41,299 bases of DNA from Promethearchaeota archaeon. GTDB taxonomy: Archaea; Asgardarchaeota; Lokiarchaeia; Sigyniarchaeales; SOKP01. The notes below the pieces were generated by a model. That model was given only the letters and a program-made list of their open reading frames with translations, searched no databases and had not been told where the DNA came from. Position numbers and translations under genes: made by a program. The DNA is taken from contig JAUVXW010000038.1 of NCBI GenBank assembly GCA_030603385.1, positions 1 to 41,299 of the forward strand, written 5' to 3'. Shown here one piece after another: positions 9,696 through 35,840 of this stretch (within the stretch, counting starts at the first letter, position 1; the number at the start of each line of letters is the position of its first letter).

Positions 9696-9761
9696 AATTT
9701 TTGCTTTTAGAATCAACATAAAACATGGGCTTTAAAATATCTTTATTTGAAAATATTTCAG

Positions 9762-9862
9762 ATGGAAGAATTAAGATACAAATTTAATTTTGAGCCAATA
9801 TCAGATAGTTTAACTGCTTTTGAAAAAAATTACAATATTTAGATCAATTATGATATATTGAG
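9762..9862 (+). pseudogene. Frameshifted N-terminal stub homologous to the MTase at 10989
   Basis: MEELRYKFNFEPISDSLTAFEK...DQL*YIE versus MDFGQYKYEFELISSDLTDFEEK...EQIRYIE; upstream AAATATCT(T/C)TATTT also shared. Confidence 0.6.
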
Positions 9863-9863
9863 A

Positions 9864-10117
9864 TCAATTTGTGTGCAGTTTGTGTATAATTATGATTTGT
9901 TTATACTTATAAACTGTATATTTCCATTAGGTAATAAAAATTATTATTAACAATCTATTTTGCTAATAATATATAAAGCAAAATTCTGGGAGAGCTTACA
10001 GATTTTTCCTTTTCATTGTATCTGATTTGTGTATAATTTGTGTCTATAAAGACTCATTCTAAACAACATAAAAAGATTTATTTTATATTAATTTAAATAA
10101 AGGTATAAAATCCGTTA
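9864..10117 (+). repeat. Intergenic regulatory block, copy 2
   Basis: Direct repeat of 7837-8089. Confidence 0.9.
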
Positions 10118-10217
10118 ATATTTTTTACTTTTTTAAAGTAATGATAAGGTTAAATCGCTCGTAATCAATTGTCGCCAACAGATTTGAATAATAAAGTATC
10201 ATTTAAGGTTAATTGAA

Positions 10218-10952: not shown

Positions 10953-10988
10953 GTTTATTTTAAATATCTCTATTTATAATTTCTATCG

Positions 10989-12146: not shown

Positions 12147-12287
12147 GTGTATAATCCTATTTAAGATACTTAGGGGATCGATATTTTTCAATTCAAATGT
12201 GTATTTCACGCTATTAGCCTAAGAGAAAAAGGTGTAGGAGTAAATAACTATGTTTTCTAACCTTCTATTTCTCTTATCTCCCTCCCC

Positions 12288-12316
12288 CGTGGTGCCCCCT
12301 CCTAAAAAAGTAGGTG
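12288..12316 (+). repeat. 29-bp GC-rich direct repeat, copy 1
   Basis: CGTGGTGCCCCCTCCTAAAAAAGTAGGTG versus CGTGTTGCTCCCTCCTAAAAAAGTAAGTG at 15174-15202 (3 mismatches). Confidence 0.75.
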
Positions 12317-12552
12317 TAGACCGATCTCAATTTAGAAATAATTGTAAAATTTTCAAGATTAGAGTATCTATTTCCATACATAAATTATGTCATCAATATG
12401 GAATTTTACAAACTCATTAGGGTCATTCCTATTCTCAATATTATGTTTATAAATTTAAAATTAATTCTGATTGGTTTATCACTTCTAATTATGAATTATT
12501 TTATAATATGAACTTGAATTTAGTAGAGTACTTATCAAAATTAACTAATGAA

Positions 12553-13701: not shown

Positions 13702-14887
13702 GTATTACCACCAAATTAAACTCTTTTTGTATAAAATCTTCAAATGAATTTCTAAGACTTAATGATAGACTATTATCTGCATATCGAATTTCAAATCCCT
13801 TTTCCTCATCATGTTTAAAGACTAATCGTAATCGATGTTTTTCATAATAAATTTTACATTCTGAAATTGATTTAATATCTTCTATTAAATCTTTCCCATT
13901 CTCTCTAAACCATTTAATAGCCGGCCCTACACTTCTATTTTGCGGGGAAGAAATTTTTAAAGATGGATTACTCCTAATTGGACTTAACTCAATTAATAAC
14001 TCTACAAGAGGTGTTTGCTCAAAATCCTCAATTTCTTTAAAAAAATTTTGTACATTGGAGACATCATTAAAATCTTCATATTTTTTTACGATCTCAACAT
14101 CTCCGATTTTTTTTAAATCCATACCCATTACTATTGGGATAAATTTCTTAATATCTATCCTTGATTGATACCCTACTCTAAAACTTTTTCCCTCTCTTGG
14201 AATACGCAGGATTATCCATTCACAAATTGTATTATAGACTGTTTCATCCAATTTTTGATTTTTCATTCTTTTAAATTCTCTTATAAAAAAGGTATAGATG
14301 TTTTCTTCAAATTCTACTTTTCCTATATATTTGCTACTATAATCATCGTTCTCAAGGTTATCGAATTTTTCTAAAAAAGTGGTTATTTTATCTTCAGATT
14401 CGAATAAATTAATAACTGTATCAACATCCTTAATATCGATTGAAAACTTGTTAAGAGTACGTTTAAATGCTGTATATAAGAGAAGAATTTGAATTAATAA
14501 ATTTGGATTTTTTTGGTATAATTTTACTATTCCAGCATATTTATCATATTTTTTGTAATCTTCTATTGATGTCTTAGAAGTCTTTGTGATTTCAGCTCTT
14601 TCTGTTTCAGTTAAGTTTTCCTTTATTATAATTACAATTGGTTCCATCCACATATTATTAGCAAAATCTTGTAACAAAAAGAAAACTTTAAGATTTTCTT
14701 GATTACTAAACAACTGTGTAATTAATTCTTCACGAGAACCTGAAGATTTTAAAAATGTTGCTATAAGTCTCACAGTATATTTAGTTTTATTCTTTAAATC
14801 TTCAAGTTTTAAATTTTTGATGTTTTCCATAACCTTATCATAATCAACTAGAAGTTGATTTTGCCAATAAAATACATTCTCGCTCAT
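13685..14887 (-). CDS. Hypothetical protein, first gene of an operon with the Mrr-like nuclease
   Basis: 400-aa ORF overlapping the downstream gene. Confidence 0.8.
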   Translation of the reverse strand: MSENVFYWQNQLLVDYDKVMENIKNLKLEDLKNKTKYTVRLIATFLKSSGSREELITQLFSNQENLKVFFLLQDFANNMWMEPIVIIIKENLTETERAEITKTSKTSIEDYKKYDKYAGIVKLYQKNPNLLIQILLLYTAFKRTLNKFSIDIKDVDTVINLFESEDKITTFLEKFDNLENDDYSSKYIGKVEFEENIYTFFIREFKRMKNQKLDETVYNTICEWIILRIPREGKSFRVGYQSRIDIKKFIPIVMGMDLKKIGDVEIVKKYEDFNDVSNVQNFFKEIEDFEQTPLVELLIELSPIRSNPSLKISSPQNRSVGPAIKWFRENGKDLIEDIKSISECKIYYEKHRLRLVFKHDEEKGFEIRYADNSLSLSLRNSFEDFIQKEFNLVVIPGINP

Positions 14888-15173
14888 ATAAATCGTCTTT
14901 TAAATAAATTTTTATCTTTTCTCTAAAAATTACAATAATGTATATTATATTTATACTAAAAATAATATTTAAGAATGAACATTTATAGCCCCTATTCAAA
15001 AGAGATATTTTTAAATTTTTATAATGTAAATTTATATAATTGGGGCTTTGCTTTATCACTGACTGCTCTGCTTCATTCCACATCTAACTTAGGTGGAGCG
15101 GTAATAAATAAATGTTATCTTTTCCATATAACTTTTCTACTTATATTTTCTCTCTTTCTATAATCTCTTACCG

Positions 15174-15202
15174 CGTGTTGCTCCCTCCTAAAAAAGTAAG
15201 TG
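15174..15202 (+). repeat. 29-bp GC-rich direct repeat, copy 2
   Basis: Matches 12288-12316. Confidence 0.75.
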
Positions 15203-15244
15203 AAAAGATATCAGATCAAAAGATAAATTAAAGTTATTGAAAAC

Positions 15245-15961
15245 CTACAAATTAACCTTCTTCTTAATTGAACTGGAGATAAAGTCAATGTAGGTTTGAA
15301 TATTTCTACAGCATTCACCAATGTAAACATTATCACATATTAATTCCTTATTTAACTCCTCATTTGGTAATTCTAATTTCCTAAGATAAGTGCTTGAAAT
15401 CTTTCCATCGTTATGTACAATTATATTTCTCCTGAAATAGTTTTCTCTTAATTGTTTCCAGTATTCAAACTCTTCTTTTAAACTAATATTAAACTTATCC
15501 ATTAACATTTGTGCAATATTATCAATATCAAAATATCCATACTTGTTTACTTCTTTCTGGGTTATGTACTCATGTAAATCGTTGATATCAGAGAATTCCA
15601 ATATTGTTTCATAATTTAAATGTTTCCTTTTACTTTTCATTAGCTCTGGTCTATATTTAAATAAGGTTTGAAAGAAATCCTTATTAAATGCTTCAAATAG
15701 AGAGAAAAGGTAAATTAAACTCATTTTTGGAGTATGTTCCTCTATTAATTCAAATTTTTCAAATAAGCTATGACCTAACTTATCATACTTATCAGGTTTC
15801 CTATCCTTTATATGAATATAGTTTTTGTCACTCTGAATTCTTTTTAATTGAGCAAGTTGAGTATTCCAAAAGTAATTACTTGCAGTATTCATCTCTAGAA
15901 CTAAAGTGGTATGGTAACTGTAATAATATATTAATTTGTCAATTTCAGTGTTTAGATCCAT
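15245..15961 (-). CDS. HEPN-domain protein (putative RNase)
   Basis: RRNIIVHNDG RxxxxH motif; upstream S.FEAF helix. Confidence 0.7.
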   Translation of the reverse strand: MDLNTEIDKLIYYYSYHTTLVLEMNTASNYFWNTQLAQLKRIQSDKNYIHIKDRKPDKYDKLGHSLFEKFELIEEHTPKMSLIYLFSLFEAFNKDFFQTLFKYRPELMKSKRKHLNYETILEFSDINDLHEYITQKEVNKYGYFDIDNIAQMLMDKFNISLKEEFEYWKQLRENYFRRNIIVHNDGKISSTYLRKLELPNEELNKELICDNVYIGECCRNIQTYIDFISSSIKKKVNL

Positions 15962-16214
15962 AATTACACTATTCTAATATTCAATTTTCATAAACTTTTG
16001 TTTTATCCATCTAAAAATAATGCTAATTCATCAAATATTAAATGAGTCTATAAATCGTAACTCTATGATAATTTAATATAAAATAATGCTCTTAAATAGA
16101 TACCCTCTAAGTAATTCAATTTACTCCAAAAAATTAATAAGTGTAGGATTAACATATGGTTATAGTATGAATTTATTCAAAATATATGAAATATTAAAAT
16201 AGGAGGAATAGAAG

Positions 16215-17564
16215 ATGATATCTCCTATCTTTCAAAAAAAATTAATAGACGTACACTTTGCAGATATCCAATCTCTTGTTGATAATCAAATTCCAGAGTC
16301 TTACGATATAGATTATAAACAAGATTATCCTAATAGTAAGAAATTAGCAAAACTAATGGTTTCATTTGCCAATGCTTCAGGAGGATATATCATATTAGGA
16401 ATAAAAGAGAAAAAAATTAAAGATCCAATTACAAATAAAGAAAGTAAAACAGGTTTACCTGAAAAAATAATTGGGATTAATAAAGGAGATCATTCAATTA
16501 AAATAACTCAAATTATTTTAGCCCACTCACAACCAAAAATAATCCCACAAGTTCATTTTTTTGAGCATGCTCAAGATAACGATAAGGATGTTGTTATAAT
16601 AAAAATTGATGAAGCTGTAGAACCAATAATGTATTATCACGCCAATGATAAAGATAGTAATAAATTCTTTATCAGAATAAATGACAAAATAGAACCTGGA
16701 GATCAACCTCTTTTGAAAAAACTCTTCTCCTACAGACCATTTTACGAAAAAATCAGTGAAATCCAAAGAACTGTATTTGATAACCAAAATAATATTTATA
16801 GAATTTATAAAGCAGGACATCAGGAAAGGAAATATATATTATTAGGGTTAGTAGTAATTCCATTCAATAAAAACTTTCAAATTCTCGATCTTAAATCAGA
16901 AGATATTGAACACTTTATTCAGAATTTATATAATTCCCTCAATTTAGAAAACCCCTTCCAGTTAATGGTGAATTTCTCAAGTTTTTTAAGAAATTTTAAT
17001 TATATGGGGGATTATTTTAAAACTTCCTTTTTTGATGAAGGAGAAAATGAGAGTTGGTATAATAAATCAGAGCTAGATCTTTTTAGGAATGGAATAATTA
17101 AACATAATATTATATATCAAACAGTTTCAATTGCTTCTATTCATCCATATGTGAATATTCCCTTGTTAATGGAAGAGTCTAAAAAAGAAAGATTTCAAAA
17201 GGCACCATATTTGATGGGAGAATTACTAGTCTATATTTACACATGTTGGTTAAAATTAATAAAATTAGTCTTTGAAAGAGGAAATTTTGGCGGAAGATTT
17301 AATCTAACTTCCAGAATTAAATATAAGGATGATATAGCTTTAGGCATTGGGAAATACTCACCCTTAAGTCATACTAATGATATTAAAATAGAAAAAACAA
17401 TTTATACTATTGATTTATCTGGACGAGATTCTTTAAAAGCTATTCTAAAAGATATATTGAGAGAGATTTTAAGATATTTTGGATACGATTTATTAAATAT
17501 TGATACAAAACTTCAAGTTTTTGAAAGTTCAATAGATAATTATATAGATTTTATTATCGCTTAA
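16215..17564 (+). CDS. AlbA_2 (Schlafen-like) domain protein
   Basis: ESYDIDYK...LAKLMVSFANASGGYIILGIKE...FFIR. Confidence 0.85.
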   Translation: MISPIFQKKLIDVHFADIQSLVDNQIPESYDIDYKQDYPNSKKLAKLMVSFANASGGYIILGIKEKKIKDPITNKESKTGLPEKIIGINKGDHSIKITQIILAHSQPKIIPQVHFFEHAQDNDKDVVIIKIDEAVEPIMYYHANDKDSNKFFIRINDKIEPGDQPLLKKLFSYRPFYEKISEIQRTVFDNQNNIYRIYKAGHQERKYILLGLVVIPFNKNFQILDLKSEDIEHFIQNLYNSLNLENPFQLMVNFSSFLRNFNYMGDYFKTSFFDEGENESWYNKSELDLFRNGIIKHNIIYQTVSIASIHPYVNIPLLMEESKKERFQKAPYLMGELLVYIYTCWLKLIKLVFERGNFGGRFNLTSRIKYKDDIALGIGKYSPLSHTNDIKIEKTIYTIDLSGRDSLKAILKDILREILRYFGYDLLNIDTKLQVFESSIDNYIDFIIA

Positions 17565-17772
17565 AAACTCCAAACCTGTATAAATGATAAAATAAACCTA
17601 GTGATTAAATATTAAAAATGGACAAATTAAACTCATTTGTTTATTTTTTTAAAATCACTCAAATTATTTAACATTTCAACCCTATCATAATTTTCGATTT
17701 TCTTTTCACAGTTATAAATATATTTAATACTGTGTTTTTACTTAATAATCAAAACGAAATCCTGGTAATTAG

Positions 17773-18459
17773 ATGAAAGAAAAATTAAAATGGAATGCGA
17801 TTGGATTAGTTAAAAAAACCCAAATCCTTTATGACTACCTTCAAAATGAGAAAAATAATATTCCTATTGACCATACGAGTAAATCTTCAAAATTGTTAGG
17901 ATATTTAGCTGAATTGAATCATCTTCTTGAACAGATGGAAAAGATTGAAAAAATAATAATACCAAAACTTGAAAAGTTATTCCGATTGAAGTTTACTACT
18001 CCAGAACTAGTTATGTTTGCACTATCTCGCCCCAGTATTCGGAACATCTTTGACGACTTGAACAAGCATTTTAAAAGTGACGGAAATGCCCCATTGAATG
18101 AAAAAGAATTAATTGAGTTAGCAAGTTCTGGAGATGCTGCAGATGTTCTAGCCCTTTTAGGAGATGCTGCACTTGATCTAATCATTGTCCAATTATTATG
18201 GGATTCATCCTTGTCAAAAACAGGAAATCTTACCGAAAAACGACAAGAAGTTGTTTCAAATCAAAATCTTGCCAAATATTGTGATGAATGGGGATTATTC
18301 ACCTGCAGGCTCAACCGCTTAAAAGGTACTACAGAAGAAGAAGCAAAACAAGAAACTATAAATCATGAAAAAGCAACCTTAGTTGAATCAGTATTAGGAG
18401 TAATTTATCTTGAATTTGGACAAGAAGTCTTACTCAGGATAGTTCCATTGATCCAATAA
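17773..18459 (+). CDS. Ribonuclease III domain protein (Mini-III-like, no dsRBD)
   Basis: LALLGDAALDL...VSNQNLA...ATLVESVLGVIYLE. Confidence 0.85.
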   Translation: MKEKLKWNAIGLVKKTQILYDYLQNEKNNIPIDHTSKSSKLLGYLAELNHLLEQMEKIEKIIIPKLEKLFRLKFTTPELVMFALSRPSIRNIFDDLNKHFKSDGNAPLNEKELIELASSGDAADVLALLGDAALDLIIVQLLWDSSLSKTGNLTEKRQEVVSNQNLAKYCDEWGLFTCRLNRLKGTTEEEAKQETINHEKATLVESVLGVIYLEFGQEVLLRIVPLIQ

Positions 18460-18479
18460 AAATTATAAGTGAAAAACCC

Positions 18480-19307
18480 ATGTATTTAGCGTTTATTGAT
18501 GAATCAGGAACGATCCAAGAAAAAAATCCTCAGAATAATTATTATGTACTCACAACAGTGGTAATGCAAGAAAAAGGGATGAAGTACCTTCATCAAAAAA
18601 CTCAAGAACTTAAGAAAGAAATATGGAAGATTGTTCAAGGGTCAAAAAAACGAATGCCTATTCAATTTGAACTCCACATGCAAGAAATCAAGGATTCAAA
18701 GGGGTTCTTCAAGCCGTTAAGAAGTAAAAAGGATAAAGCTGAGAACATCCTGAGAAAAGTTTATAACTACATTCAAAATCTTTACATAAAAATCATTTCC
18801 ATAATTATTGTCAAAGATAAGTTTTTCGAGATTTATGATCTTGAAGAACTCTTAAAATGGGCTCTTAAATTACTTATTGAGCGCATAAATCGTTATGTCT
18901 GGGGAGAATCTAAAAATGATAAGGAATATGCTCTTTTAATAATGGATCAAGATTTTGTTCTTGATAAAAAGAAACGACAGTTTATCTCCGAAATGATGGA
19001 ACTTGGTGTTAAATACAATACAATAGATGTTGATAGAGTATTAGATACTCCAATAATTTTAAAATCTGAACTTCACAATGGAATTCAAATCGTTGATTCA
19101 GTAGCCTTTTTAATTCACAGATATACAAGAAAGAAGTTAGAAGGCAATATTTCTACGTTATTCGATGAATTATCCGATGAATTTGTTTTAAGTTTAGCCT
19201 GGAAATTCTATGGGGGTGCTCCTTCAAGTAATAATGAATCGGGGTTAAAATTCTTCCCTTCAAATTATTCACCTCCCTCCGCATATTGGGATGCCTTCTC
19301 GAAATAA
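18480..19307 (+). CDS. DUF3800 domain protein (RNase H-like fold)
   Basis: MYLAFIDESG, ELH and S....IQIVD motifs. Confidence 0.85.
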   Translation: MYLAFIDESGTIQEKNPQNNYYVLTTVVMQEKGMKYLHQKTQELKKEIWKIVQGSKKRMPIQFELHMQEIKDSKGFFKPLRSKKDKAENILRKVYNYIQNLYIKIISIIIVKDKFFEIYDLEELLKWALKLLIERINRYVWGESKNDKEYALLIMDQDFVLDKKKRQFISEMMELGVKYNTIDVDRVLDTPIILKSELHNGIQIVDSVAFLIHRYTRKKLEGNISTLFDELSDEFVLSLAWKFYGGAPSSNNESGLKFFPSNYSPPSAYWDAFSK

Positions 19308-19580
19308 ATGTCACATATAAAACGTTTTGTATCAATAAATTTCTAGTGTATTTCTCGTTTTGTATCATTAGATATCTTTTGTTAATAATTTTAAACACTT
19401 TATTAAGCTAGATAAAATCAGTTCAACTTCATTAATCCCTTAATAGTTTAAATAAACTTAACTCCCTATAGTAGTTTAGTTAAGAGATTAATAATTTCTT
19501 TTATAAATAAAGCTACTAAAAAATTTTATAGATAATGAAAATTTTAAAGAATTTTTTTCAAAAACTATTAAAACTACTAT

Positions 19581-19895
19581 ATGGAGGTGAAAAAGATGGA
19601 TAAAAGAGATTTACATTTTTTCAAATACAGACTTCATGGAATAATATACTTGAAATTTTATAGAGATCTAAAGAAGTTTGGATTCGAATTTCTAATAAAT
19701 CATTATGAGGAATTTTACTTTCTAACCAAGTATAAAGAGTATGGTCCAGAGTTTTTAAAATTCTTAAATGCGGCGATTGAATTGAAAATAATTGAAATCA
19801 TCAATATGAAGGATTTAATTGAGTTTAAAGATAGCTGTATATTGAGATGGGTCTTCATGAATTTAGATGATGATGGAAGGAATGAAAATAATTGA
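19581..19895 (+). CDS. Hypothetical protein
   Basis: ORF; GGAGGTG suggests the real start is the second ATG (MDKR). Confidence 0.5.
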   Translation: MEVKKMDKRDLHFFKYRLHGIIYLKFYRDLKKFGFEFLINHYEEFYFLTKYKEYGPEFLKFLNAAIELKIIEIINMKDLIEFKDSCILRWVFMNLDDDGRNENN

Positions 19896-20016
19896 TTGCA
19901 TCTTACAGTGCGGCAATATTCAATTATCTTTTCCTTCATTTAATATATTCTTATTTTTTTTTTAAAATTTATTATTAAAATTATTAAGATAGTATCAAGA
20001 ATTAAGAAACTCAAGA

Positions 20017-20247
20017 TTAGGTTTTGAGTCTGATTCGAGTGAGAAGTTTATCAACATCAATCTTTTCACTATATTTAATAATATACTTATTTGGACCTGT
20101 AGTCTCAGTCACATCTAATAATTCTACATTAGCTAAAAGCCCTAATGATCTCCAGATGAAATTAATTTTTGAGCGATCAGTTGATTCTATATTTTTTTTT
20201 ATTCGAATTTTTTTTACAGTGATGATATTATCGCCTTTCTCAATCAA
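20017..20247 (-). CDS. Small winged-helix-like protein, possibly 5'-truncated
   Basis: ITVKKIR...SKINFIWRSL..L...KY.I; TTG start. Confidence 0.4.
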   Translation of the reverse strand: MIEKGDNIITVKKIRIKKNIESTDRSKINFIWRSLGLLANVELLDVTETTGPNKYIIKYSEKIDVDKLLTRIRLKT

Positions 20248-20251
20248 TTTA

Positions 20252-20560
20252 TTATCTTAATGTTTTTTTTTTGTATATCCATTCAGTAGCATAGAGATAT
20301 CCATTTCGAACTATTAATTGACTTTTAGGGCACCATGTTCCACGTTTACCACCAATAAGTATTGCTTTTCGCGTCTGTTTTCTACGCCTTTGAGCTGGAA
20401 CCAATCTAATATACTTCTTTCCATTTTCATATATAACTTGTCCATGTTGTACTTCATGTTCTTCTCTAAAAATTATATTAAGATTATTTGGATTATTATT
20501 GAACTTATTTCCATCTTTATGATGAATGTCGTAATCAGATGCTATCGAGTCCCTATTTAT
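20252..20560 (-). pseudogene. 5'-truncated HNH endonuclease with C-terminal T.KA...W.PKS domain (absent from the ORF track)
   Basis: Manual translation: YDIHHKDGNKFNNNPNNLNIIFREEHEVQHG...ENGKKYIRL...KQTRKAILI...WCPKSQ...YLYATEWIYKK; no start codon, abuts the RM gene stop. Confidence 0.75.
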
Positions 20561-23538
20561 TATTCATATAAATATTCTCTCACAATCTGTTCACTTTCTT
20601 TAGATTTTAAGATTTTTGAGCCAATTTCATCGATTTTCGTAACTTCTTCTTGTATTACAGCCATTAATTCATGTTCCCTAATTTTCTCATTATTCCTCAC
20701 AAAATCTTCAACTTTCTGACCACATTTCTTTGATAAATTTGATATATTAAGTTGGTCTTCGTCACCAGTAAATTTAGGGATATTAAAATATAGCGGTCTT
20801 TTATGATGATGTCGAGTATCGCTAATTTTTTTTACGCTTCTTTCTAAAATCGAGTTATTAAGCATTCCACACAGGTAATAAGCCTCAAGCTCATTTTCAG
20901 TTCCATAATAGTATAATGTTGAGTCTACATAAACACGACCTTTAAGATCATGAATAACTGCTGCCGTCAATTTCTTAGCATTAGGAAACACGACTTTATA
21001 AAGTTTCCTTTGGGATGGTCGAACTATTTTATTAGTACATAGTTTATTTCTGTAATTGATGCCTACTTCAAATAGATCATTTTTTGTATTATTAAAATAA
21101 GTCTCTTTTATGGAATTCCAATGTTTTCGGCTAAAAGGACCAATCTTAGAAAGTCTATACTGAAAATTTGAATCTAAAGGCAAAAAAATGGAATATGGTT
21201 TTATATAAAATGGATATAATTCTCTTGATAATGTCGCTTTAAAGATATTTTCACTTTCTACTTGAACTTTCTTAAAGTATTTTTTTTTCCAGACTCCTTT
21301 AGCTTGAGGGGATATCCATGGATCGATGATTGATATTTTTCCTTGTTGAATTCTATTTACTACTTCACAATAGAGTAGAGATTTAGGTATTAAATCAGCC
21401 CCTTGAATAAACTCTTTATAATAATCTGATAAGAAGAAAGGTAACAATTCTTGTTTTTTCTCAGAATGTATTAATTTTTTAACTCTATATTTTTCTTTTC
21501 TTTTCTTGTGGAAATATACGTATGGTTCTAATTTGAAATCTTCAATTAATTCAAGCGTCTCAGAATCTAAATATTTACAATTGATTGGATATTTATTGAA
21601 CACATCATCTTGGTTTATTTTGATATCATTATAATTAGCAAAAATACAACAACAATCTATATTAAAAATCAAGTCATTAAATTCGAAAAATTCTATATTA
21701 AAGAAAGCATCAAACCTTCTCGCTTTTTCATTTTGAGATGAAACAAGTAAAGAACGAGGCATTATAAAAGCTATTTTTCCATTTCCATCTTTCCTTAAGT
21801 ATAAATCAGGTATTTTATAAAGAAACACCACTGCTTCTTCGATATTTGTTATATTTTTAGCATCAGGTCTGATATCAAATTGTTCAGTGATTTTTTTCAT
21901 ATTTTCTTGTAATTTCTTATCAGCATCTTTGTATGTTAGCCAAGGGGGATTTGTGATTATTAAATCCATCTTTTTCTTTAATAAGAGTAAATGAATACCA
22001 ACTAAATTATTTAGAATATATAACCAGATATGATCTTTATCTTGCTCTTTTAATACATATAATTCTTCGAAAAATTTTAGTATATATTGATATTCTATTT
22101 CATTTGAATCAAGAAAAGAAGATATAACATTTGTATCAATAGCTCTAATAGCTGCATCCCATGTATCTTTAAAACTATCAAATGTTTCCCATACTCGATA
22201 AAGTGAATCTAGAACAATTTGAAAAGATTCAATATTATTCTGAGTTAATGCACTTCCAGGGATTCGTAGCTCTAGCTCTTCATCCAATAAATCTATACAG
22301 AATGAATAGTAACTTCCTAATTCTATATCCGCATACGAAGCAAATTCTATTGGATCAATAGAATTACATAAATATACGTTTATGAATATATCTTCAATAA
22401 ATCTTTCTCTTGATTTAAAATATAATAATAAGTTAGCTTTGGTAGTAAGAACAGCAATAGGATTAATATCAAACCCAAAAATATTATTAACAGCCTTAAA
22501 CCATTCTTTTGGAGGTCTTTCATTAATGGTAAAATCAAATTGTGAATCAATTTTTTTGCAGGTTTCAATTAAAAATGTTCCCGATCCACAAGATGAATCT
22601 AACACGCGATCACCTAAATCATATGCTTTATTAACCATTTTTCTGCAGAGAATTTCAGGTGTGTAATATTCTCCTAACCGATGACGCACTCCAGCTATAA
22701 TCATTTCTTGATAGATTGTTCTAAAAATATCCGTTGCTTCAAAATTCATTATTTTTAACTTTTCAAAATAATCATCACAAAAATCTTTAACATTTATAAC
22801 CCAGCGAAAAAAATCATAATGGAACAATGATATTCCCAATTTCTCAAAATAGCCTTCCAAATCCTTAAAGTAATCACGGGAATATTCCTCGGGATCCATA
22901 AACTCTTTGTATAATATTAATTTTAGTAGTGTACTAAGATATGAATGTCTAAGGAATAGTTCTTTTCCAACTTCTTCATCATGATATGCTAGTCTAAAAT
23001 GGTTTTTCCATTGTTCAAAACACACATTTCCCTTTCTATAACGATCATCAAAATGTTTCTCCAATCTAGAATAAGCTAAGATGTATAATGGTGAATTCAC
23101 TCCAAATAATACGGCAAATTGATCAGAATTTACACTTTTTGGTTCGAGAAGACATTCTATTAATGATATAATTGATTTTCTATCGATTTCGCGATCATTT
23201 CTTAATGCTAAGTCTTTATCATAATAATAAATATTCTTTTCAGATATTACAATTAATAAAGAGGGATTTTTACCTCTTTTTTTCAAATACTCTTGGATAT
23301 ATTGGCTACCTTTCGTTAAGGCCCATTGATTTATTTCTCGCTTTTTCAGCTTATATTTAAAGTCAATAATTATATCTCCAATTAAACAATCTGGTTTACC
23401 CTTTAACAATCTTTGCTGTGGCTGATATTGTAATTCTAATTTATCAAATAAACTATCAAACAAATGCTCAATTTGATACTCGTTTTGAGCACGTTTAATC
23501 AAGTTTATGTCGATTTCAATGTCTTTTAGGGTTGCCAT
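20560..23538 (-). CDS. Type IIG-like restriction-modification fusion (endonuclease + N6-adenine MTase + specificity region)
   Basis: N-terminal KPD...IDFK; GEYYTP, DSSCGSGTFL, GFDINP, TNPPW. Confidence 0.88.
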   Translation of the reverse strand: MATLKDIEIDINLIKRAQNEYQIEHLFDSLFDKLELQYQPQQRLLKGKPDCLIGDIIIDFKYKLKKREINQWALTKGSQYIQEYLKKRGKNPSLLIVISEKNIYYYDKDLALRNDREIDRKSIISLIECLLEPKSVNSDQFAVLFGVNSPLYILAYSRLEKHFDDRYRKGNVCFEQWKNHFRLAYHDEEVGKELFLRHSYLSTLLKLILYKEFMDPEEYSRDYFKDLEGYFEKLGISLFHYDFFRWVINVKDFCDDYFEKLKIMNFEATDIFRTIYQEMIIAGVRHRLGEYYTPEILCRKMVNKAYDLGDRVLDSSCGSGTFLIETCKKIDSQFDFTINERPPKEWFKAVNNIFGFDINPIAVLTTKANLLLYFKSRERFIEDIFINVYLCNSIDPIEFASYADIELGSYYSFCIDLLDEELELRIPGSALTQNNIESFQIVLDSLYRVWETFDSFKDTWDAAIRAIDTNVISSFLDSNEIEYQYILKFFEELYVLKEQDKDHIWLYILNNLVGIHLLLLKKKMDLIITNPPWLTYKDADKKLQENMKKITEQFDIRPDAKNITNIEEAVVFLYKIPDLYLRKDGNGKIAFIMPRSLLVSSQNEKARRFDAFFNIEFFEFNDLIFNIDCCCIFANYNDIKINQDDVFNKYPINCKYLDSETLELIEDFKLEPYVYFHKKRKEKYRVKKLIHSEKKQELLPFFLSDYYKEFIQGADLIPKSLLYCEVVNRIQQGKISIIDPWISPQAKGVWKKKYFKKVQVESENIFKATLSRELYPFYIKPYSIFLPLDSNFQYRLSKIGPFSRKHWNSIKETYFNNTKNDLFEVGINYRNKLCTNKIVRPSQRKLYKVVFPNAKKLTAAVIHDLKGRVYVDSTLYYYGTENELEAYYLCGMLNNSILERSVKKISDTRHHHKRPLYFNIPKFTGDEDQLNISNLSKKCGQKVEDFVRNNEKIREHELMAVIQEEVTKIDEIGSKILKSKESEQIVREYLYE

Positions 23539-24437: not shown

Positions 24438-24521
24438 GGTGGGGTTCCCGAGTGGTTAAAGGGACTAGATTACCAATCTAGCGGCTAAGAGCCTTCGTGG
24501 GTTCGAATCCCACCCCCAATT
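24438..24521 (+). tRNA. Atypical type II tRNA (Leu-like body, anticodon ACC = Gly), possibly a pseudo-tRNA
   Basis: D arm CCC-GAGTGGTTAAA-GGG; anticodon arm CTAGA-TTACCAA-TCTAG; variable arm GGCT-AAG-AGCC; T arm GTGGG-TTCGAAT-CCCAC; acceptor GGTGGGG/CCCCAAT with a G2.A71 mismatch. Confidence 0.8.
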
Positions 24522-26124: not shown

Positions 26125-26775
26125 TTAGAACTTATTTGAACTTACATATTTGACAATTCTATTAAGTTCAGCATTAGCCATTCGTTTATTTAAATCATGT
26201 ATATATCCAATAATTTTAGCATAGACACATACCACATGAATAAACTTTTCTTGTGAAAATAGGGAAAGGGTATACTGAGAATCTACTAATTCTTTACGAT
26301 ACTTACCCTTATCATATTTTTTATATTTCTTTTTGTTGATATAATCCATTAATTTATCTTTATTTTCTGTTTCTAACGTCCCGTGAGCACACTTTTGGTC
26401 TTTTTCTTCTAAAAAACCTAACTTTTCCTTCTTTAATTTCCTACCTATTTTATATATCTCCCCAATATCTCTTTTCCCCATTCGGTCAGCAAAATGTTTT
26501 TCACGTCCATGAACAACCTTAATTACATCAAAATGAGCAAATACTTTAATCTGGGGGTATTTTTCAGTACCAGAATACTTATAACCAAAGGATAAATGAA
26601 GATGGTATCGACCAGCTTTGGTTTTTCGCACAAATACTTCAGTAGGAATGATTTTGTCTTCCACCCTTATGGATTTATTATTCGAACCGATATGTTCATA
26701 TCCAAGTTCCTTAAAAAACTGATAGATACGACTCTCTTCAACCCCATAATTTTTTCGGAAATTAACTCGTACCAT
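26125..26775 (-). CDS. Hypothetical basic protein
   Basis: 216-aa ORF, His/Lys-rich. Confidence 0.7.
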   Translation of the reverse strand: MVRVNFRKNYGVEESRIYQFFKELGYEHIGSNNKSIRVEDKIIPTEVFVRKTKAGRYHLHLSFGYKYSGTEKYPQIKVFAHFDVIKVVHGREKHFADRMGKRDIGEIYKIGRKLKKEKLGFLEEKDQKCAHGTLETENKDKLMDYINKKKYKKYDKGKYRKELVDSQYTLSLFSQEKFIHVVCVYAKIIGYIHDLNKRMANAELNRIVKYVSSNKF

Positions 26776-26959: not shown

Positions 26960-28051
26960 ATGAGTAAAAAGGGCAATCGCTTCAATCTTGTAGTTCTTTC
27001 AATCAGTTTCATAATTATCTCATTAAATTTCTTTACGATACCTGTATATTCTTGGGAGATTGACAAGACGGGCACGGTATATAATATTGTTGACGGAGAC
27101 ACTGTTGATGTAACGTCAGTGGGAAGAATTCGCCTTGCTGACATCGATTGTCCAGAGTCGGGAGAGGCAGGGGGTGCTGCAGCGACCCAATATATTGGCT
27201 CTCTTATATATCAAAAAGAAGTCTATGTTGATGTGGATGATATAACTGGCACAGATCCCTATGGTCGTGTGGTAGCGGTGATTTATGTCTATTATGATGA
27301 TAATAATTTAAAAAATGTAAACAAGGCAATGTTGGTTGCAGGCCATGCGGAGATATGGGATTTTGATAATAATGAATTCAATCCGTATAGCTGGACCTTG
27401 TATGTTAGTTATCAATCTAATCCCCCTCCAGATCCTCCACCTCCGGATCCACCACCTCCGGATCCTCCACCTCCGGATCCTCCACCTCCAGACCCCCCAC
27501 CTCCAGATGATCCTTTACCACCTGATTATACAACCACTTATGTTGGGATTGCTGTTGGAGGTTCTCTTATCGCTGCTAGTGTTATTACTGGAACATATGC
27601 TTTCAAAAATAAGGAAAAAATAAAATCTAAGATTAGAAGCATGAAACGGTCTATGTCTAAAAATACACAGAATAGAGCAAAACCTAAACATGTAAATACT
27701 GTAAGTTCCCCAAAAACTGTGAGTCCTCAAGCTAACAAAACCCAAATAAAAGATATAACATCTAACATGAGAAATATATCTATACATGGTAAAGTAGAAA
27801 AAGTTGATGAGATTCGTGATTTTGTGAGAAAAGATGGTTCACATGGACGAGTGGGCTCTTTTATTCTTTCAGATGAGACAAAAAGTATCAGAGTTGTTCT
27901 ATGGGATAACAAATGTTCACTGCTTAATCAAAGTAATTTTGTTGTTGGGGGACAGGTCAAAATTATGAATGCCCATAGCAAGATCAATACCTTTTATGGA
28001 AAAAATGACATTGAGATTCATCTCGGTAAGTTTTCAAAATTAGAGATTTGA
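26960..28051 (+). CDS. Thermonuclease (SNase) - Pro linker - TM helix - RPA-type OB-fold fusion protein
   Basis: Signal peptide; VDGDT, IRLADIDCPE, DPYGR; (DPPPP)5; hydrophobic helix followed by basic residues; F.RKDG..GRV....LSDET.SIRVVLWD OB motif. Confidence 0.88.
   Translation: MSKKGNRFNLVVLSISFIIISLNFFTIPVYSWEIDKTGTVYNIVDGDTVDVTSVGRIRLADIDCPESGEAGGAAATQYIGSLIYQKEVYVDVDDITGTDPYGRVVAVIYVYYDDNNLKNVNKAMLVAGHAEIWDFDNNEFNPYSWTLYVSYQSNPPPDPPPPDPPPPDPPPPDPPPPDPPPPDDPLPPDYTTTYVGIAVGGSLIAASVITGTYAFKNKEKIKSKIRSMKRSMSKNTQNRAKPKHVNTVSSPKTVSPQANKTQIKDITSNMRNISIHGKVEKVDEIRDFVRKDGSHGRVGSFILSDETKSIRVVLWDNKCSLLNQSNFVVGGQVKIMNAHSKINTFYGKNDIEIHLGKFSKLEI
27431..27505 (+). repeat. Five 15-bp tandem units encoding DPPPP
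   Basis: GATCCTCCACCTCCG-like units. Confidence 0.9.
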
Positions 28052-30283: not shown

Positions 30284-32071
30284 ATGTCTAACCTGATAGA
30301 ATTAGTATTTCTGTTTTTAGTTCTTATTTTAACGGGGTTAAGCATCATTTATTTCATAGCTCAGAAAAGAGAGAATTCACCCATCATTCTAAAATATACT
30401 ATAGTACTTCTTTTAGGGATCTCGGTTATCATTTTCATTATAAATTCATTACCCATTATAACGTCTGTTTCAGAGCCTGAAATTTCTTCTGAAAACGTAA
30501 TAATTACCAATATTCCGCTTTTTTTACTCTGCTTTTCTACTGCGTTATTTATTTATTCACTAAATATTTCCGATGATGATGTTATAGAATTGGACAAACC
30601 TTCAATCTTTAAATCAAGAAAAGGTACAATTAAAATTGGCAGAGTAATGAAAGGAGATCATAAGAAACATAAATTCTTTCTTTCACTTAAAGATCTGGAA
30701 AAGCATATGTTTATTTGCGGGGCAACAGGTACGGGAAAAACAACATTTTTACAATATCTTCTCATGAATTTTACTAAGCATCATAAAATTCCTTTTATGC
30801 TTGTTGAGTTTAAAGGAGAGTATCATTTTTTACAACGAAAAATTGAGAATTTATTAATAATAAGACCAGGAGATAATTTTTCGATAAATATCTTTAATCC
30901 AGGGAATATATCTCCAGAAGTTCATGCTGAACGAGTTTTTGATATTTTAAAGAGTGGTAAGTTTTTAGATGAAAATGCTGAGTTCAGCCCACAAATGGAA
31001 AAAGTTCTCGTTGAAATTCTAACGAAGGTATGTGGACACAAACAATTTCAGAGTTGGAAAGGGTTTTATGATTATTGTAAGGGGTATGCGAAGAATAAAA
31101 AAGATGAAATTCCAATGTTAAGTCAAACTCTTATCAGTATTACAAATAGGATTAGGCGGTTTTCCTTAGGGTCGTTAAAAGCATTATTTGATACAGATCA
31201 TAAAATTAAAATAGAAAATATTTTTGAGAGAAATATTTTAATTGATTTGAGCTCTATTATTCGTTTAGGTGGAGAGAAAGAAGATGCTCTTTTCTTTTTG
31301 AATATGCTATTAAAGTATTTATGGGATAAAAATCTCACGCGTGGAGCTTTTAATTTTAAGGGCATAAAACATGTGACTATCATCGAAGACACTCAATATT
31401 TTGCTCCAAAAGACCTTACTCGCAAAAATAAATTAACTACATATTTAGAAGATATTGCTTTGCTTCAAAGAGGTACTGGAGAATGTCTAATCTCCTTAGC
31501 AACTCATCCTGAAATAAGTCAAGAAATATTGGCAAATTGCGGCGTTTTGGTATGTTTTAAAACTCATATGGAAAAGGAATTTCTATGTAAATTATTAAAT
31601 CTTGATACAGAACATGAAGATTACCTATCAATTTTAGAGGAAGGGCAATGTTTAATTCGAGTTAATTCCATCAAGAGACCCTTTTTACTTGGCGTTCCAT
31701 TTGTTAAAAGAGATTGGTTAGAGATGTCAGAAATTAACAGAAATAATCAAGTTATTTTGGAAAATCTTGAAAATAAAAGTTTTGAGAGTGTAAAAACACC
31801 ATCCTTTAAATTTATCAAGAAATTTAAGGAAAAAAGTGCTAAAAGTATGAATAGAATAAATAATAAAATTAAAGGATTTAAGAATAAACTCAAAAAAAAG
31901 TTTAATGATAAAGAAATTGATCCATTAAGTATCCCTGATTTTGATTCTGATAAAGATTATTTAGAAAATGATATTGATACTTTTGATGAAGATGAAAAAG
32001 AGAGATTAGCATATGAGAGATTGAAAAAATACATAAATGAACTAGCCGCAGAACAGGAAAAAAGCGGTTAA
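30284..32071 (+). CDS. Membrane-anchored HerA/VirB4-like (DUF87) ATPase
   Basis: Three N-terminal TM helices; KHMFICGATGTGKT; atypical Walker B TIIEDTQ; QRGTG. Confidence 0.85.
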   Translation: MSNLIELVFLFLVLILTGLSIIYFIAQKRENSPIILKYTIVLLLGISVIIFIINSLPIITSVSEPEISSENVIITNIPLFLLCFSTALFIYSLNISDDDVIELDKPSIFKSRKGTIKIGRVMKGDHKKHKFFLSLKDLEKHMFICGATGTGKTTFLQYLLMNFTKHHKIPFMLVEFKGEYHFLQRKIENLLIIRPGDNFSINIFNPGNISPEVHAERVFDILKSGKFLDENAEFSPQMEKVLVEILTKVCGHKQFQSWKGFYDYCKGYAKNKKDEIPMLSQTLISITNRIRRFSLGSLKALFDTDHKIKIENIFERNILIDLSSIIRLGGEKEDALFFLNMLLKYLWDKNLTRGAFNFKGIKHVTIIEDTQYFAPKDLTRKNKLTTYLEDIALLQRGTGECLISLATHPEISQEILANCGVLVCFKTHMEKEFLCKLLNLDTEHEDYLSILEEGQCLIRVNSIKRPFLLGVPFVKRDWLEMSEINRNNQVILENLENKSFESVKTPSFKFIKKFKEKSAKSMNRINNKIKGFKNKLKKKFNDKEIDPLSIPDFDSDKDYLENDIDTFDEDEKERLAYERLKKYINELAAEQEKSG

Positions 32072-32097
32072 TTAATGTTTTAATCTGTATAGCTTCA

Positions 32098-32682
32098 TTA
32101 AATCATTAAACTTAGGGAAGTTCTAAATCCAACAAGGATCCAGAAGAAGAAGCCAACACCTATAAATGTCATGAACTTCAATTTAGAACGTAGTATGAAT
32201 TTATTAAAGAACATCAGATAAATTCCTATGATTATTAAGAGAAGCGAAATTAATGAGAGAGAATTTATAAAAAAAAATAAGGCCCTGAGCCCTATATTTA
32301 AGCTGTGAACATCATTTAATGAGATAGAATTGAAATCCTCCATGTAACCTAACAATATTGCTGGTTCTGGTAAAATTTCGAACAATTGAAACAATGATTT
32401 CAGGAGATCTTCAGATAAGAAGGCAAACGCGAGAATAAAGTAAATTGCCATTCCTATCCTTCCACGTTTTTTCACCAATTCTTCTTTTCCATGAACCCTC
32501 TCATCATATTCTCTTTCTCTTGCATTTATCAATAAAAGGACACTCAGAATTAGAAAGAGAGAAAAGAACAAATAATTAGCATGCTTGAAGAGGACATAAA
32601 AAAAGTTGTTAAATCCATTTAGAAAAGGGATTAGTGGTTCAAAAATTTCACTGAAATCAAATTCTGAAAGATAATCTAACAT
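32098..32682 (-). CDS. Integral membrane protein (~4 TM)
   Basis: Four hydrophobic stretches in 194 aa. Confidence 0.75.
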   Translation of the reverse strand: MLDYLSEFDFSEIFEPLIPFLNGFNNFFYVLFKHANYLFFSLFLILSVLLLINAREREYDERVHGKEELVKKRGRIGMAIYFILAFAFLSEDLLKSLFQLFEILPEPAILLGYMEDFNSISLNDVHSLNIGLRALFFFINSLSLISLLLIIIGIYLMFFNKFILRSKLKFMTFIGVGFFFWILVGFRTSLSLMI

Positions 32683-32933: not shown

Positions 32934-35840
32934 TTGAAGAATAATACAAAATATTTGATTTTAATGCTGATCGCAATTACACTAACTTTTCTTAATATTA
33001 AGATATTACCACATCAATCCATTGAAGGAAAAGATTCCCTTGAGGTTATTACTCCACAACCTCCCAGAGTATCTCCTGTTTATTACGAAGATACGGCCGG
33101 ATTAGCACGTGGCATTTACTTGAGCGGAGATTACGCCTACGTGGCTGTTGGGAGCTGGGGCTTAGCGGTCATTGACATTTCCGATCCGACAAATCCGGGA
33201 TACCCCCGCTACAGCGTCACAACCGGATGGTCACGGGACATCTACGTGAGCGGAGATTATGCCTATATGGCTGATAATACTTCGGGCTTGGCGGTCATTG
33301 ACATCTCCGACCCAATAATCCCGGGAACACCCGTCTATGAACCCACGACCTCATTGGCATGCGGTGTTTACGTGAGCGGAAATTATGCCTATGTAGCGGA
33401 TGATGAAGAAGGCTTGGCGGTCATTGATATATCCAACCCGACAAACCCGGGAACGCCCGACTACAGAAACACGACCGGATCTGCATATGGCATTTACGTG
33501 AGCGGAGATTATGCCTACGTGGCTGATGGGGGCTCTGGCTTGGCGGTCATTGATATTTCCAACCCGACCAACCCTGGAACGCCTGTCTACGAAGACACGA
33601 CCGGATCTGCGTATGATGTTTACGTTAGCGGAGATTACGCCTACGTGGCTGATGGGAGCTCGGGCTTGGCAGTCATTGACATTTCCGATCCGACAAATCC
33701 GGGACCGCCCGTCTACGAAGACACGACCGGATCTGCAAATGACGTTTACGTGAGCGGAGATTACGCCTACGTGGCTGATGGGAGCTCTGGCTTGGCGGTC
33801 ATTAACATTTCCGACCCGACTAACCCGGGAATGTTCTTCTACGAAGACACGACTGATAATGCCCTTGGCGTTCACGTGAGCGGAAGTTATGCCTACGTGG
33901 CTGATGAGAGCTCTGGCTTGGCGGTCATCAAAGTTTCCGACCCGATCAGCCTGGGAACGCCCATCTACGAAGACACGACCGGATTTGCATATGACGTTTA
34001 CGTGAGCGGAGATTACGCCTACGTGGCTGTTGGGTACTCTGGCTTGGCGGTCATTGACATTTCCGACCCGACCAACCCGGGACCAACCTTCTACGAAGAT
34101 ACGACCGGAACTGCGTATGATGTTTACGTTAGCGGAGATTACGCCTACGTGGCTGATGGGTACGATGGCTTGGCGGTCATTGACATTTCCGACCCAACAA
34201 ATCCAGGAACACCCAATTATTACCTTACAACTGATGCTCGTGGCGTGTACGTGAGTGGAGATTATGCCTATGTAGCGGATGCTTCGATCAATGGCTTGTG
34301 GGTCATTGATATTTCCGACCCGACCAACCCAAGACTCGCCGATATCCAAATGGGTAATATATTAGACGTTTACGTGAGCGGAGATTACGCCTACGCGGCT
34401 GGTTTTTCCAGTGGCTTGTTTGTATTTGATATTTCCGACCCTTTCGGCTCGGGAGTGCCGATCTCCAGCGAGGACACGACTGGTTATGCACGTGGCATTT
34501 ACGTGAGCGGAGATTATGCCTATGTAGCGGATGATGAAGAAGGCTTGGCGGTCATTGATATATCCAACCCGACAAACCCGGGAACGCCCGACTACAGAAA
34601 CACGACCGGATCTGCATATGGCATTTACGTGAGCGGAGATTACGCCTATGTAGCAGATGAGGCCTCGGGCTTGGCAGTCATCGACATTTCCGATCCGACC
34701 AACCCAGGAACGCGCATCTACAAAGACACGACCGGATCTGCACGTGGCATTCACGTGGACCAGGATTACGCCTATGTAGCCGATGGAATTTCGGGCTTGG
34801 CGGTCATTCAAGTAAGACAACTAATTGATGAGTGGAATCCTGTAATTACCGATTTACCTAGCGATCTTTCCGTCGAATACAGCTACACTGGGCAGAGTCT
34901 ATCATGGACTGCGATTGATGCTAACCCAGATATATATACCATCGAATTGGAAGGAACAGGAATAGTAGATGGTCCGAATGTATGGACGTACGGAAATACA
35001 ATTACCTACAACATCCCCGAGGGATTTAGCCTAGGATCCTACATTTACACGGTTAACTTCACAGATCTTCGGGGCCATTTCGTTACCGACAGCGTCAATT
35101 TTGAAGTAGGTGCAGACACGATCGATCCAACAATAATTAGCGCTCCAAGCGATTTCATTTTGGAATTCGGATACACGGGGCAGAGCCTGTCGTGGACGGC
35201 AACTGATCCCAATCCTGACACTTACACGATTGAACTCCAAGGGTCAGGAATAATAGATGGTCCGAATGTATGGACGAGCGGAAACGCAATTACCTACAAC
35301 ATCCCTAATGGATTTAGCCTAGGATCGTACATTTACACGGTTAACTTCACGGACGACTTTGGTAATTCTAAAATTGACAGCGTTACATTTACAGTAGATG
35401 ACACTATTGCTCCTATAATTATGATTAATTCTCCAAATACCAATGATGAATTTGGCACTCTTGCTCCAGCATATGAAATTTCCATCAATGATCCACATTT
35501 AGATAAAATTTGGTATACGCTAGATGGAGGTCTTACTAATATTACAACTGCAAGTGTATCAGGACCAATAAATGAAGCTATTTGGGAAGGGATTTCAGAA
35601 GGTCCTGTAACTATAAGATTTTATGCTAACGATACATTAGGAAACATCGATTATAACGAAGTTACTGTAATAAAATCTGTACCAGCTAAAGACTCAGACA
35701 ATTTTTGGAAAGATTTGATGCAACAAGGACTATTAATCCCTATAGTTGGAGCTGGTGTAGGAGGTATAATTGGGATAGCTTTTTTCATTATTAAGAGGAA
35801 GTTAAAGAAAAAGGGAGAGAAAGTTGGTGTTGCTGCATAA
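32934..35840 (+). CDS. Cell-surface LVIVD-repeat protein (14 repeats, two Ig-like modules, C-terminal TM)
   Basis: 14 x ~42-aa VYVSGDYAYVAD..GLAVIDISDP repeats; signal peptide; TM plus basic tail. Confidence 0.92.
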   Translation: MKNNTKYLILMLIAITLTFLNIKILPHQSIEGKDSLEVITPQPPRVSPVYYEDTAGLARGIYLSGDYAYVAVGSWGLAVIDISDPTNPGYPRYSVTTGWSRDIYVSGDYAYMADNTSGLAVIDISDPIIPGTPVYEPTTSLACGVYVSGNYAYVADDEEGLAVIDISNPTNPGTPDYRNTTGSAYGIYVSGDYAYVADGGSGLAVIDISNPTNPGTPVYEDTTGSAYDVYVSGDYAYVADGSSGLAVIDISDPTNPGPPVYEDTTGSANDVYVSGDYAYVADGSSGLAVINISDPTNPGMFFYEDTTDNALGVHVSGSYAYVADESSGLAVIKVSDPISLGTPIYEDTTGFAYDVYVSGDYAYVAVGYSGLAVIDISDPTNPGPTFYEDTTGTAYDVYVSGDYAYVADGYDGLAVIDISDPTNPGTPNYYLTTDARGVYVSGDYAYVADASINGLWVIDISDPTNPRLADIQMGNILDVYVSGDYAYAAGFSSGLFVFDISDPFGSGVPISSEDTTGYARGIYVSGDYAYVADDEEGLAVIDISNPTNPGTPDYRNTTGSAYGIYVSGDYAYVADEASGLAVIDISDPTNPGTRIYKDTTGSARGIHVDQDYAYVADGISGLAVIQVRQLIDEWNPVITDLPSDLSVEYSYTGQSLSWTAIDANPDIYTIELEGTGIVDGPNVWTYGNTITYNIPEGFSLGSYIYTVNFTDLRGHFVTDSVNFEVGADTIDPTIISAPSDFILEFGYTGQSLSWTATDPNPDTYTIELQGSGIIDGPNVWTSGNAITYNIPNGFSLGSYIYTVNFTDDFGNSKIDSVTFTVDDTIAPIIMINSPNTNDEFGTLAPAYEISINDPHLDKIWYTLDGGLTNITTASVSGPINEAIWEGISEGPVTIRFYANDTLGNIDYNEVTVIKSVPAKDSDNFWKDLMQQGLLIPIVGAGVGGIIGIAFFIIKRKLKKKGEKVGVAA

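Follow-up and report, generated by a model that had tools for sequence, protein, structure and literature searches.

What might a cell do with a nuclease that faces its surroundings and, on the other side of the same membrane and in the same polypeptide, a fold of the kind that binds single-stranded DNA (ssDNA)? The question is raised by a gene of an Asgard archaeon from the class Lokiarchaeia (Promethearchaeota archaeon, GenBank assembly GCA_030603385.1), found on contig JAUVXW010000038.1, whose positions 1 to 41,299 are referred to below as the window. The gene occupies positions 26960..28051 of the forward (+) strand, including the stop codon, and encodes a predicted type I membrane protein that combines a staphylococcal nuclease (SNase) domain, a Pro-rich stalk, a transmembrane helix, a basic tail, and an OB fold. 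With about even confidence, we read it as a surface nuclease, anchored in the membrane, that would act on extracellular nucleic acid and whose tail would bind single-stranded nucleic acid inside the cell. This architecture looks undescribed: literature searches for Asgard or Lokiarchaeota together with thermonuclease or staphylococcal nuclease found no paper, in agreement with an earlier note on this stretch, made by a model from the sequence alone, which had not recognized the arrangement.

The gene is a single uninterrupted open reading frame (ORF) of 363 amino acids (aa), with an ATG start and no internal stop codons. This ATG, at position 26960, is preferred over an upstream TTG at 26936 because the orthologues likewise open with MSKKGN in a 30-sequence alignment; the extent of the gene as a whole is supported by the ORF and by full-length orthologues. 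Statements on residue conservation and charge refer to this alignment, which samples 30 of the ~45 orthologous clusters, and an alignment of 30 orthologues was also used to build an AlphaFold2 (AF2) model. The order of parts listed in the earlier note (signal peptide, SNase, (DPPPP)5 stalk, transmembrane helix, OB fold) agrees with the Pfam and NCBIfam matches, the translation, and the hydropathy profile. Its suggestion to consult AlphaFold had a mixed outcome: the SNase and OB domains fold confidently (pLDDT of ~80 to 94), whereas the transmembrane helix, along with the stalk and the basic linker, is modeled with low confidence (<50).

The SNase ectodomain (aa 33 to 150; positions 27056..27409; pLDDT of 80 to 90) is recognized at residues 56 to 138 by the Pfam profile PF00565 (E value of 3.6e-11; 43.9 bits against a cut-off of 21), and phmmer matches it to thermonuclease (E value of 9e-7). 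Foldseek aligns its OB-like barrel with many SNase structures, with target-normalized TM-scores of 0.66 to 0.70 and a root mean square deviation (rmsd) of ~2 Å. In the thermonuclease alignment, D47, R58, D63, C64, E66, Y101, and R103 correspond to D21, R35, D40, T41, E43, Y85, and R87, respectively, in the established numbering of staphylococcal nuclease. All Ca-ligand and catalytic positions of the family are matched (equivalents of D21, R35, D40, the T41 backbone, E43, and R87), with the catalytic and Ca-binding block located at aa 45 to 66 (DGDT ... RIRLADIDCPE; positions 27092..27157) and R103 of the YGR motif at positions 27266-27268. D45, G46, D47, T48, R56, R58, D61, P65, Y101, and R103 are invariant among the orthologues; position 66 is E or, in a few of them, D, and position 63 is D, N, or Q. 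The intact nuclease motifs noticed previously are thus upheld by both the alignment and the invariance and, judging from these comparisons, the protein is an SNase-family member with a complete active site. It is encoded by the only SNase gene of the source genome.

The C-terminal domain (aa 258 to 363; positions 27731..28048) is an OB fold that resembles OB-1 of RPA1. The NCBIfam replication factor A (RFA) models match residues 252 to 360 with an E value of 3.8e-22, a partial match that scores far under the whole-protein cut-off; Pyrococcus abyssi Rpa1 is matched with an E value of 6e-9 (PDB entry 8aa9), and Foldseek superimposes the domain on OB-1 of that protein (8aa9/8oej) with an rmsd of 1.6 to 1.8 Å at 32 to 33% identity. 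Compared with Asgard RPA1, the fused OB is 41 to 48% identical to OB-1, ~35% identical to OB-2, and 27 to 34% identical to OB-3. It retains 18 conserved OB-1 positions, including F288, F301, and W315, and has G277, F288, G296, S300, F301, D305, V313, L314, W315, K341, E352, and H354 in common with genuine RPA1 OB-1; F288, F301, W315, Y339, K341, E352, and H354 are invariant or nearly so across the orthologues. In a tree of OB domains, the fused OBs form one group (SH-aLRT support of 86) inside the OB-1 clade (90); they are separate from OB-2 and OB-3 and do not branch from within present-day Lokiarchaeial RPA1. While the fold and the signature residues are those of RPA1 OB-1 (P. abyssi, 8AA9/8OEJ; Asgard RPA1, ~575 to 590 aa), the fused protein has a single OB, lacks the AROD, OB-2 and OB-3, the Zn finger, and the trimerization helix, and is attached to the membrane through a basic linker. 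Its identity as an RPA subunit was rejected on account of the one OB following a transmembrane helix and a basic linker and of RFA scores far below the whole-protein cut-offs.

The OB of the fusion gene is the only RPA-like OB detected in the source genome (94% complete), where canonical RPA1/AROD (DUF2240) was not found by protein query, Pfam family, or tblastn. Relatives in the same genus carry an ORF of ~580 aa, the size of canonical RPA, that is matched by the OB part of the family model; in these relatives RPA1 lies ~8 to 12 kb from a HerA paralogue, and the same paralogue is missing from the source genome. The missing RPA1 region is therefore probably just unassembled in this metagenome-assembled genome (MAG). 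A soluble RPA-like paralogue, which consists of an AROD-like N-terminus and two OBs (286 aa as read in locus L105, with frames of ~310 to 317 aa), is widespread in the family alongside the ~580-aa RPA1.

On which side of the membrane each domain lies was judged from hydropathy, charge bias, and comparative evidence. The N-terminus (aa 1 to 31; positions 26960..27052) is signal-peptide-like: K3, K4, and R7 precede a hydrophobic segment of 22 residues (aa 8 to 29; Kyte-Doolittle value of 2.26), which is followed by VYS|WE, so that there are 3 K/R before the segment and 2 D/E after it. The pattern of K/R before and acidic residues after the segment is conserved in all 30 aligned orthologues, and hydropathy, charge, and alignment all point to an export signal, predicted to be cleavable. 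Beyond the SNase domain comes the Pro-rich stalk (aa 153 to 189; positions 27416..27526), in which DPPPP is repeated five times (aa 158 to 182); at the DNA level this is a 15-bp tandem repeat of 5.9 copies (positions 27421-27508), and the length of the stalk differs among orthologues. The predicted transmembrane helix (aa 194 to 215; positions 27539..27604) is free of charges and rich in Gly, Ala, and Ser; its best 19-residue Kyte-Doolittle window is a marginal 1.59, and the orthologues mostly reach 1.7 to 2.6 at the same position. The 42 residues after it, a predicted cytoplasmic linker (aa 216 to 257; positions 27605..27730), contain 13 K/R and 1 D/E. In every aligned orthologue, the 15 residues preceding this second segment include 0 or 1 K/R and 1 to 5 acidic residues, and usually 4 to 9 K/R follow it. 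Since the positive-inside rule is satisfied only with the nuclease outside and the OB inside, a single-pass type I topology is supported. The hydropathy and charge pattern of all orthologues fits a signal peptide and one stop-transfer helix, with the C-terminus inside and with low AF2 confidence for the helix. Both the RPA-type OB and the outside/inside topology postulated in the earlier note are therefore sustained, the former by the NCBIfam, P. abyssi Rpa1, and Foldseek matches and the latter by the positive-inside pattern, kept in 30/30 orthologues, and by the same sidedness of a reverse-order fusion described below.

A large protein search found ~45 clusters of proteins of 322 to 374 residues with an identical end-to-end architecture and 39 to 85% identity. 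These come from NCBI, JGI, ENA, and Logan assemblies, including that of Lokiarchaeum GC14_75, and some are encoded on contigs of 20 to 175 kb. The chance that the fusion is an assembly chimera or a read-through of two adjacent genes is therefore vanishingly small: the source MAG has an estimated contamination of 7%, yet the same intact ORF is found in all these clusters from independent Lokiarchaeial assemblies and in two other species genomes. This disposes of the one-off chimera that had been named as a possible undoing of the proposal. At the level of species, when a family profile is required to match from end to end, just 3 of 400 Asgard genomes have the full-length fusion, namely, the source genome, 1 of 53 others in its genus, and 1 in another genus of the same family. 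In about a dozen Asgard genomes the SNase part is joined to other tails, and the remaining matches are to canonical RPA1 or to the soluble two-OB paralogue only. The gene is an accessory one and does not belong to the core machinery. Viral origin was rejected, as the viral contigs of IMG/VR hold no fusion, only generic SNase domains with 27 to 38% identity. DNA sequencing runs that contain the gene are cold-seep and marine-sediment metagenomes (shares of <=0.24), the contigs obtained from them are short unitigs that make no new connections, and no RNA sequencing runs containing it were listed.

Related SNase proteins with a single transmembrane helix carry other modules on the basic side. One of them, a 302-aa protein of a cluster that NCBI names Helarchaeota (P0083/P0084; locus L016), has the reverse order: an N-terminal SSB-type OB (Pfam PF21473; NCBIfam PRK06461, E value of 9.5e-23), ~12 K/R, a transmembrane helix, and SNase, with no signal peptide. 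Its SNase is 58% identical to that of the fusion, its OB is only 30% identical, and this OB likewise lies on the basic side of the helix. Because the SNase is related, the OB different, and the order opposite, the same sidedness must have been reached by an independent fusion, which supports the placement of the OB inside. The reverse-order form is rare, being represented by one cluster; the genome with locus L016 belongs to another family of the same class. Its gene (L016 958-1866, the same as L141/L142 8001-8891) is followed by two genes for 158-aa proteins on the opposite strand, and a soluble DUF87 ATPase of 587 aa is encoded 1.2 kb downstream.

Other modules found on the basic side include a Pol-beta/NTP_transf_2-type nucleotidyltransferase with a helical domain (P0036, P0038, P0040, P0050, and L015), which was identified via the ESM Atlas and had no match among PDB sequences; Zn-ribbons, either N- or C-terminal; and Rpp29/S1-like barrels (PF01868; 32.4 bits against a cut-off of 27). 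In two metagenomic proteins, P0270 and P0173, predicted cytoplasmic tails of ~180 aa have matches to RNase P/MRP p29, which in P0270 exceed the threshold, and weak ones to S1 RNA-binding domains. Yet another relative has a Trp-rich tail, in some the tail is merely 3 to 18 residues long, and many longer ones have Ig-like, CARDB, or CBM domains outside and a terminal transmembrane anchor. In a tree of the ectodomains, the OB-tailed proteins account for 36 of 48 rows and are spread over the tree; it is from among them that the forms with a nucleotidyltransferase or a short tail branch off (starred branch, 97). The alternative inner modules have nucleic acid binding or modification in common. That the SNase has been combined with more than one binder, and in either domain order, suggests that the pairing is functional rather than accidental.

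These comparisons suggest how the two halves could work together. The ectodomain, held off the membrane by the Pro-rich stalk, would act as a Ca-dependent, sugar-nonspecific nuclease and cut extracellular DNA or RNA into fragments at the cell surface. On the inner side of the membrane, right beneath the site of degradation, the tail would bind single-stranded nucleic acid; it may capture or retain oligonucleotides or strands that a separate transporter brings in or, alternatively, anchor the enzyme to single-stranded nucleic acid within the cell. Degradation of extracellular nucleic acid by the ectodomain is suggested by analogy with the surface SNases of Bacillus, Staphylococcus, and Haloferax. 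Such enzymes are tied to the use of extracellular DNA, and Haloferax Hvo_1477 is needed for growth on it (PMC3929857). The preference for nucleic acid over RPA partner proteins as the ligand of the tail comes from the fact that the alternative inner modules have nucleic acid binding or modification as their common denominator. A nucleoside hydrolase gene located 33 bp downstream of one orthologue was also counted in favor of the reading as a whole. The nuclease and the tail may be coupled to import, one of the roles (DNA uptake, scavenging, or exclusion) put forward in the earlier note; the protein itself is not a DNA channel, as a single-pass helix cannot be one.

Several points weigh against this reading. 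The products of SNases are small and 3'-phosphorylated, unlike a long transported strand, and are better suited to scavenging than to the import of a strand. The binding of ssDNA by one OB fold is usually weak, and at position 339, which is Y in the family, only the query has H. The query helix is marginally hydrophobic and of low AF2 confidence. The nuclease can evidently work without a tail, given the relatives whose tails have 3 to 18 residues, and the rarity of the fusion (3 of 400 species genomes) means that it is no general uptake machine. Finally, no channel, ComEC, DprA, or pilus gene is found nearby in the nine loci compared, and the genomic context is that of defense islands, not of nucleotide-salvage genes.

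A different role could be that of a barrier to foreign DNA, in which the surface nuclease would destroy naked, vesicle-borne, or partly exposed DNA and the tethered OB would sequester any entering strand, making the gene an accessory defense gene. Periplasmic and surface nucleases lower transformation in bacteria, and the patchy distribution of the fusion would fit such a role. In the window, positions 4137-23538 hold a dense run of defense-type genes, which code for a DUF87/ResIII helicase-like protein, two N6/N4 methyltransferases, a PLD-family nuclease, a Schlafen AlbA_2 protein, an RNase III domain protein, a DUF3800 protein, and a 992-aa type IIG restriction-modification enzyme, and cassette-like repeats are found downstream. 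The orthologues are accompanied by HsdR, MvaI/BcnI with a methyltransferase, AbiTii, TIR proteins, GIY-YIG with DUF87, or MazE-PIN. There is also a weak PADLOC match to the candidate family 'SNc+LTD' (E value of 1.9e-6), and one of the alternative tails is a nucleotidyltransferase of MNT/AadA-like type, whose fold is often met in toxin-antitoxin and defense systems. However, Asgard genomes are generally rich in defense genes, which makes co-location weak evidence, and no specific defense partner recurs among the loci. The earlier note had proposed a check of neighborhood conservation, and its result was negative: none of the neighbors recurs in the nine loci. Encapsidated viral DNA would be out of reach of a surface nuclease, IMG/VR viral contigs contain no relative of the fusion, and no mechanism ties the tail to an abortive or signaling output. 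We regard the barrier as a real but minor possibility.

What the tail binds could also be protein. Rather than receiving a strand, it might, as a paralogue of Rpa1 OB-1, serve as an interaction or clustering module that docks on the acidic AROD of Rpa1 or on Rpa3 of RPA-coated ssDNA, thereby anchoring RPA filaments or the nucleoid at the membrane or clustering the nuclease upon cytoplasmic ssDNA. Clustering is a common mode of action of single-pass receptors, the signature residues of OB-1 are retained in the fused OB, and the fusion has a basic linker in place of the AROD. In P. abyssi, OB-1 binds the AROD and the Rpa3 OB of the adjacent RPA, besides ssDNA (PMC10122647). Still, we consider docking quite unlikely: the SSB-type OB, Rpp29/S1-like, and Zn-ribbon tails share nucleic acid binding, not interfaces for RPA partners, which makes nucleic acid the common ligand. 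It is highly improbable that both domains are extracellular, with the OB acting as a substrate-binding module and the central stretch not spanning the membrane. A nuclease and an OB that are both outside are an established design, seen in ComEC (PMC12455585) and in Bacillus subtilis YhcR and streptococcal SWAN (PMC4118848), and the weak helix of the query would permit it. On the other hand, the position of the hydrophobic segment is conserved in all orthologues, with a strong K/R cluster C-terminal to it; the reverse-order protein lacks a signal peptide in front of its N-terminal OB, which Sec could therefore not export; the nucleotidyltransferase and Rpp29/S1-like tails are typical cytoplasmic domains; and the OB is closest to cytoplasmic RPA1 OB-1, not to YhcR-type OBs. 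A bolder extension of the surface-nuclease reading, and a rather doubtful one, would make the family the DNA-handling core of an archaeal transmembrane nucleic acid route, for import of environmental DNA or RNA or for loading of nucleic acid into protrusions or into vesicles as they bud; selection for physical coupling of the two faces would then explain why an outer SNase has repeatedly been paired, in either order, with inner single-strand binders of four kinds.

Several known systems resemble the fusion in part. Hvo_1477, YokF and YncB of B. subtilis, and staphylococcal Nuc and Nuc2 are likewise exported proteins with an SNase catalytic domain that are retained at the cell surface and have been linked to the use of extracellular DNA (PMC3929857). 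However, these proteins are lipoproteins, N-terminally anchored, or secreted, and lack a C-terminal transmembrane helix with a cytoplasmic nucleic-acid-binding domain; Hvo_1477 has an extracellular lamin-tail-like domain where the fusion has the helix and the OB. In ComEC, too, a single polypeptide that acts on environmental DNA has a nuclease, an OB, and a membrane portion, but its OB and nuclease both lie outside and the strand passes through a channel of several helices (PMC12455585), whereas the fusion has one helix, no channel, a different nuclease fold, and domains on opposite sides. Identity with ComEC was rejected, since there is no Pfam or NCBIfam match to the competence domain or the beta-lactamase-like nuclease and only a single helix follows the signal. 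YhcR and SWAN (the latter from Streptococcus sanguinis) combine a signal peptide, a nuclease, and an OB in one surface protein but are all-extracellular and sortase-anchored, with YhcR-type OBs (PMC4118848); the fusion has an RPA-type OB beyond the transmembrane helix, on its basic side. A protein of this type was rejected because of the positive-inside helix between the domains and the reverse-order homologue with no signal peptide before its OB. EndA/NucA together with SsbB/DprA offer a likeness in the proposed division of labor, cutting outside and binding a single strand inside. The analogy that the earlier note drew to EndA/NucA and SSB/DprA stands only as a functional one, as none of those families is present: EndA and NucA are beta-beta-alpha-Me nucleases, SsbB and DprA are unrelated to RPA OB-1, there is no sequence relation to the fusion, and those proteins work with ComEC, for which the fusion has no counterpart. 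A likeness in build is also seen in the Helarchaeota and sibling proteins, with a related SNase (~58%), a single transmembrane helix, and a nucleic-acid-related module on the basic side; they differ in the module families and in having either domain order, and are unpublished metagenomic proteins.

For the handling of environmental DNA in archaea, the Asgard group especially, the fusion provides a small, concrete, and easily expressed candidate. To our knowledge, this process has so far been tied only to the Haloferax surface SNase, to pili and a few genes in methanogens, and to the Ced system of Crenarchaeota. A transmembrane route, if true, would be a way of archaeal nucleic acid transfer that was not previously known; if the tail is only a tether or a regulator, the protein would still represent a new architecture of a known type of surface nuclease. 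The set of related proteins also shows that these archaea diversify their surface enzymes by exchanging cytoplasmic tails.

Several other genes of the window deserve mention. A HerA/FtsK-like DUF87 ATPase of 595 aa with three N-terminal transmembrane helices is encoded at positions 30284-32071, 2.2 kb downstream of the fusion, and in three related genomes this ATPase lies 2.2, 5.2, and 9.2 kb from it. An obligate coupling of the two was rejected: the ATPase is present in 49 of the 54 genomes of the genus and the fusion in 2 of 54, and the DUF87 protein near the Helarchaeota gene belongs to a different, soluble subfamily. The ATPase gene and a convergent gene for a 194-aa protein with four transmembrane helices (together, positions 30284-32682) form a pair that is also found in Lokiarchaeum GC14_75 (71 and 62% identity). 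Directly upstream of the fusion, on the reverse (-) strand, is a 216-aa ORF (positions 26125-26775); its homologue (36% identity) lies directly upstream of an SNase gene with the nucleotidyltransferase tail (L143 1268-2221), and the association is seen in these two loci only. Positions 32934-35840 (+) encode a 968-aa protein with 14 LVIVD repeats (PF08309; E value of 3.6e-151) and an Ig-like domain; the gene contains 126-bp tandem repeats and has a GC content of 0.50 to 0.52, compared to ~0.28 in the rest of the window, possibly due to recent transfer or to a repeat-driven bias. Lastly, ARAGORN predicts an 84-nucleotide tRNA-Gly with the anticodon ACC at positions 24438-24521 (+), which scores 43.4 bits with Rfam and is unusually long for a tRNA-Gly.

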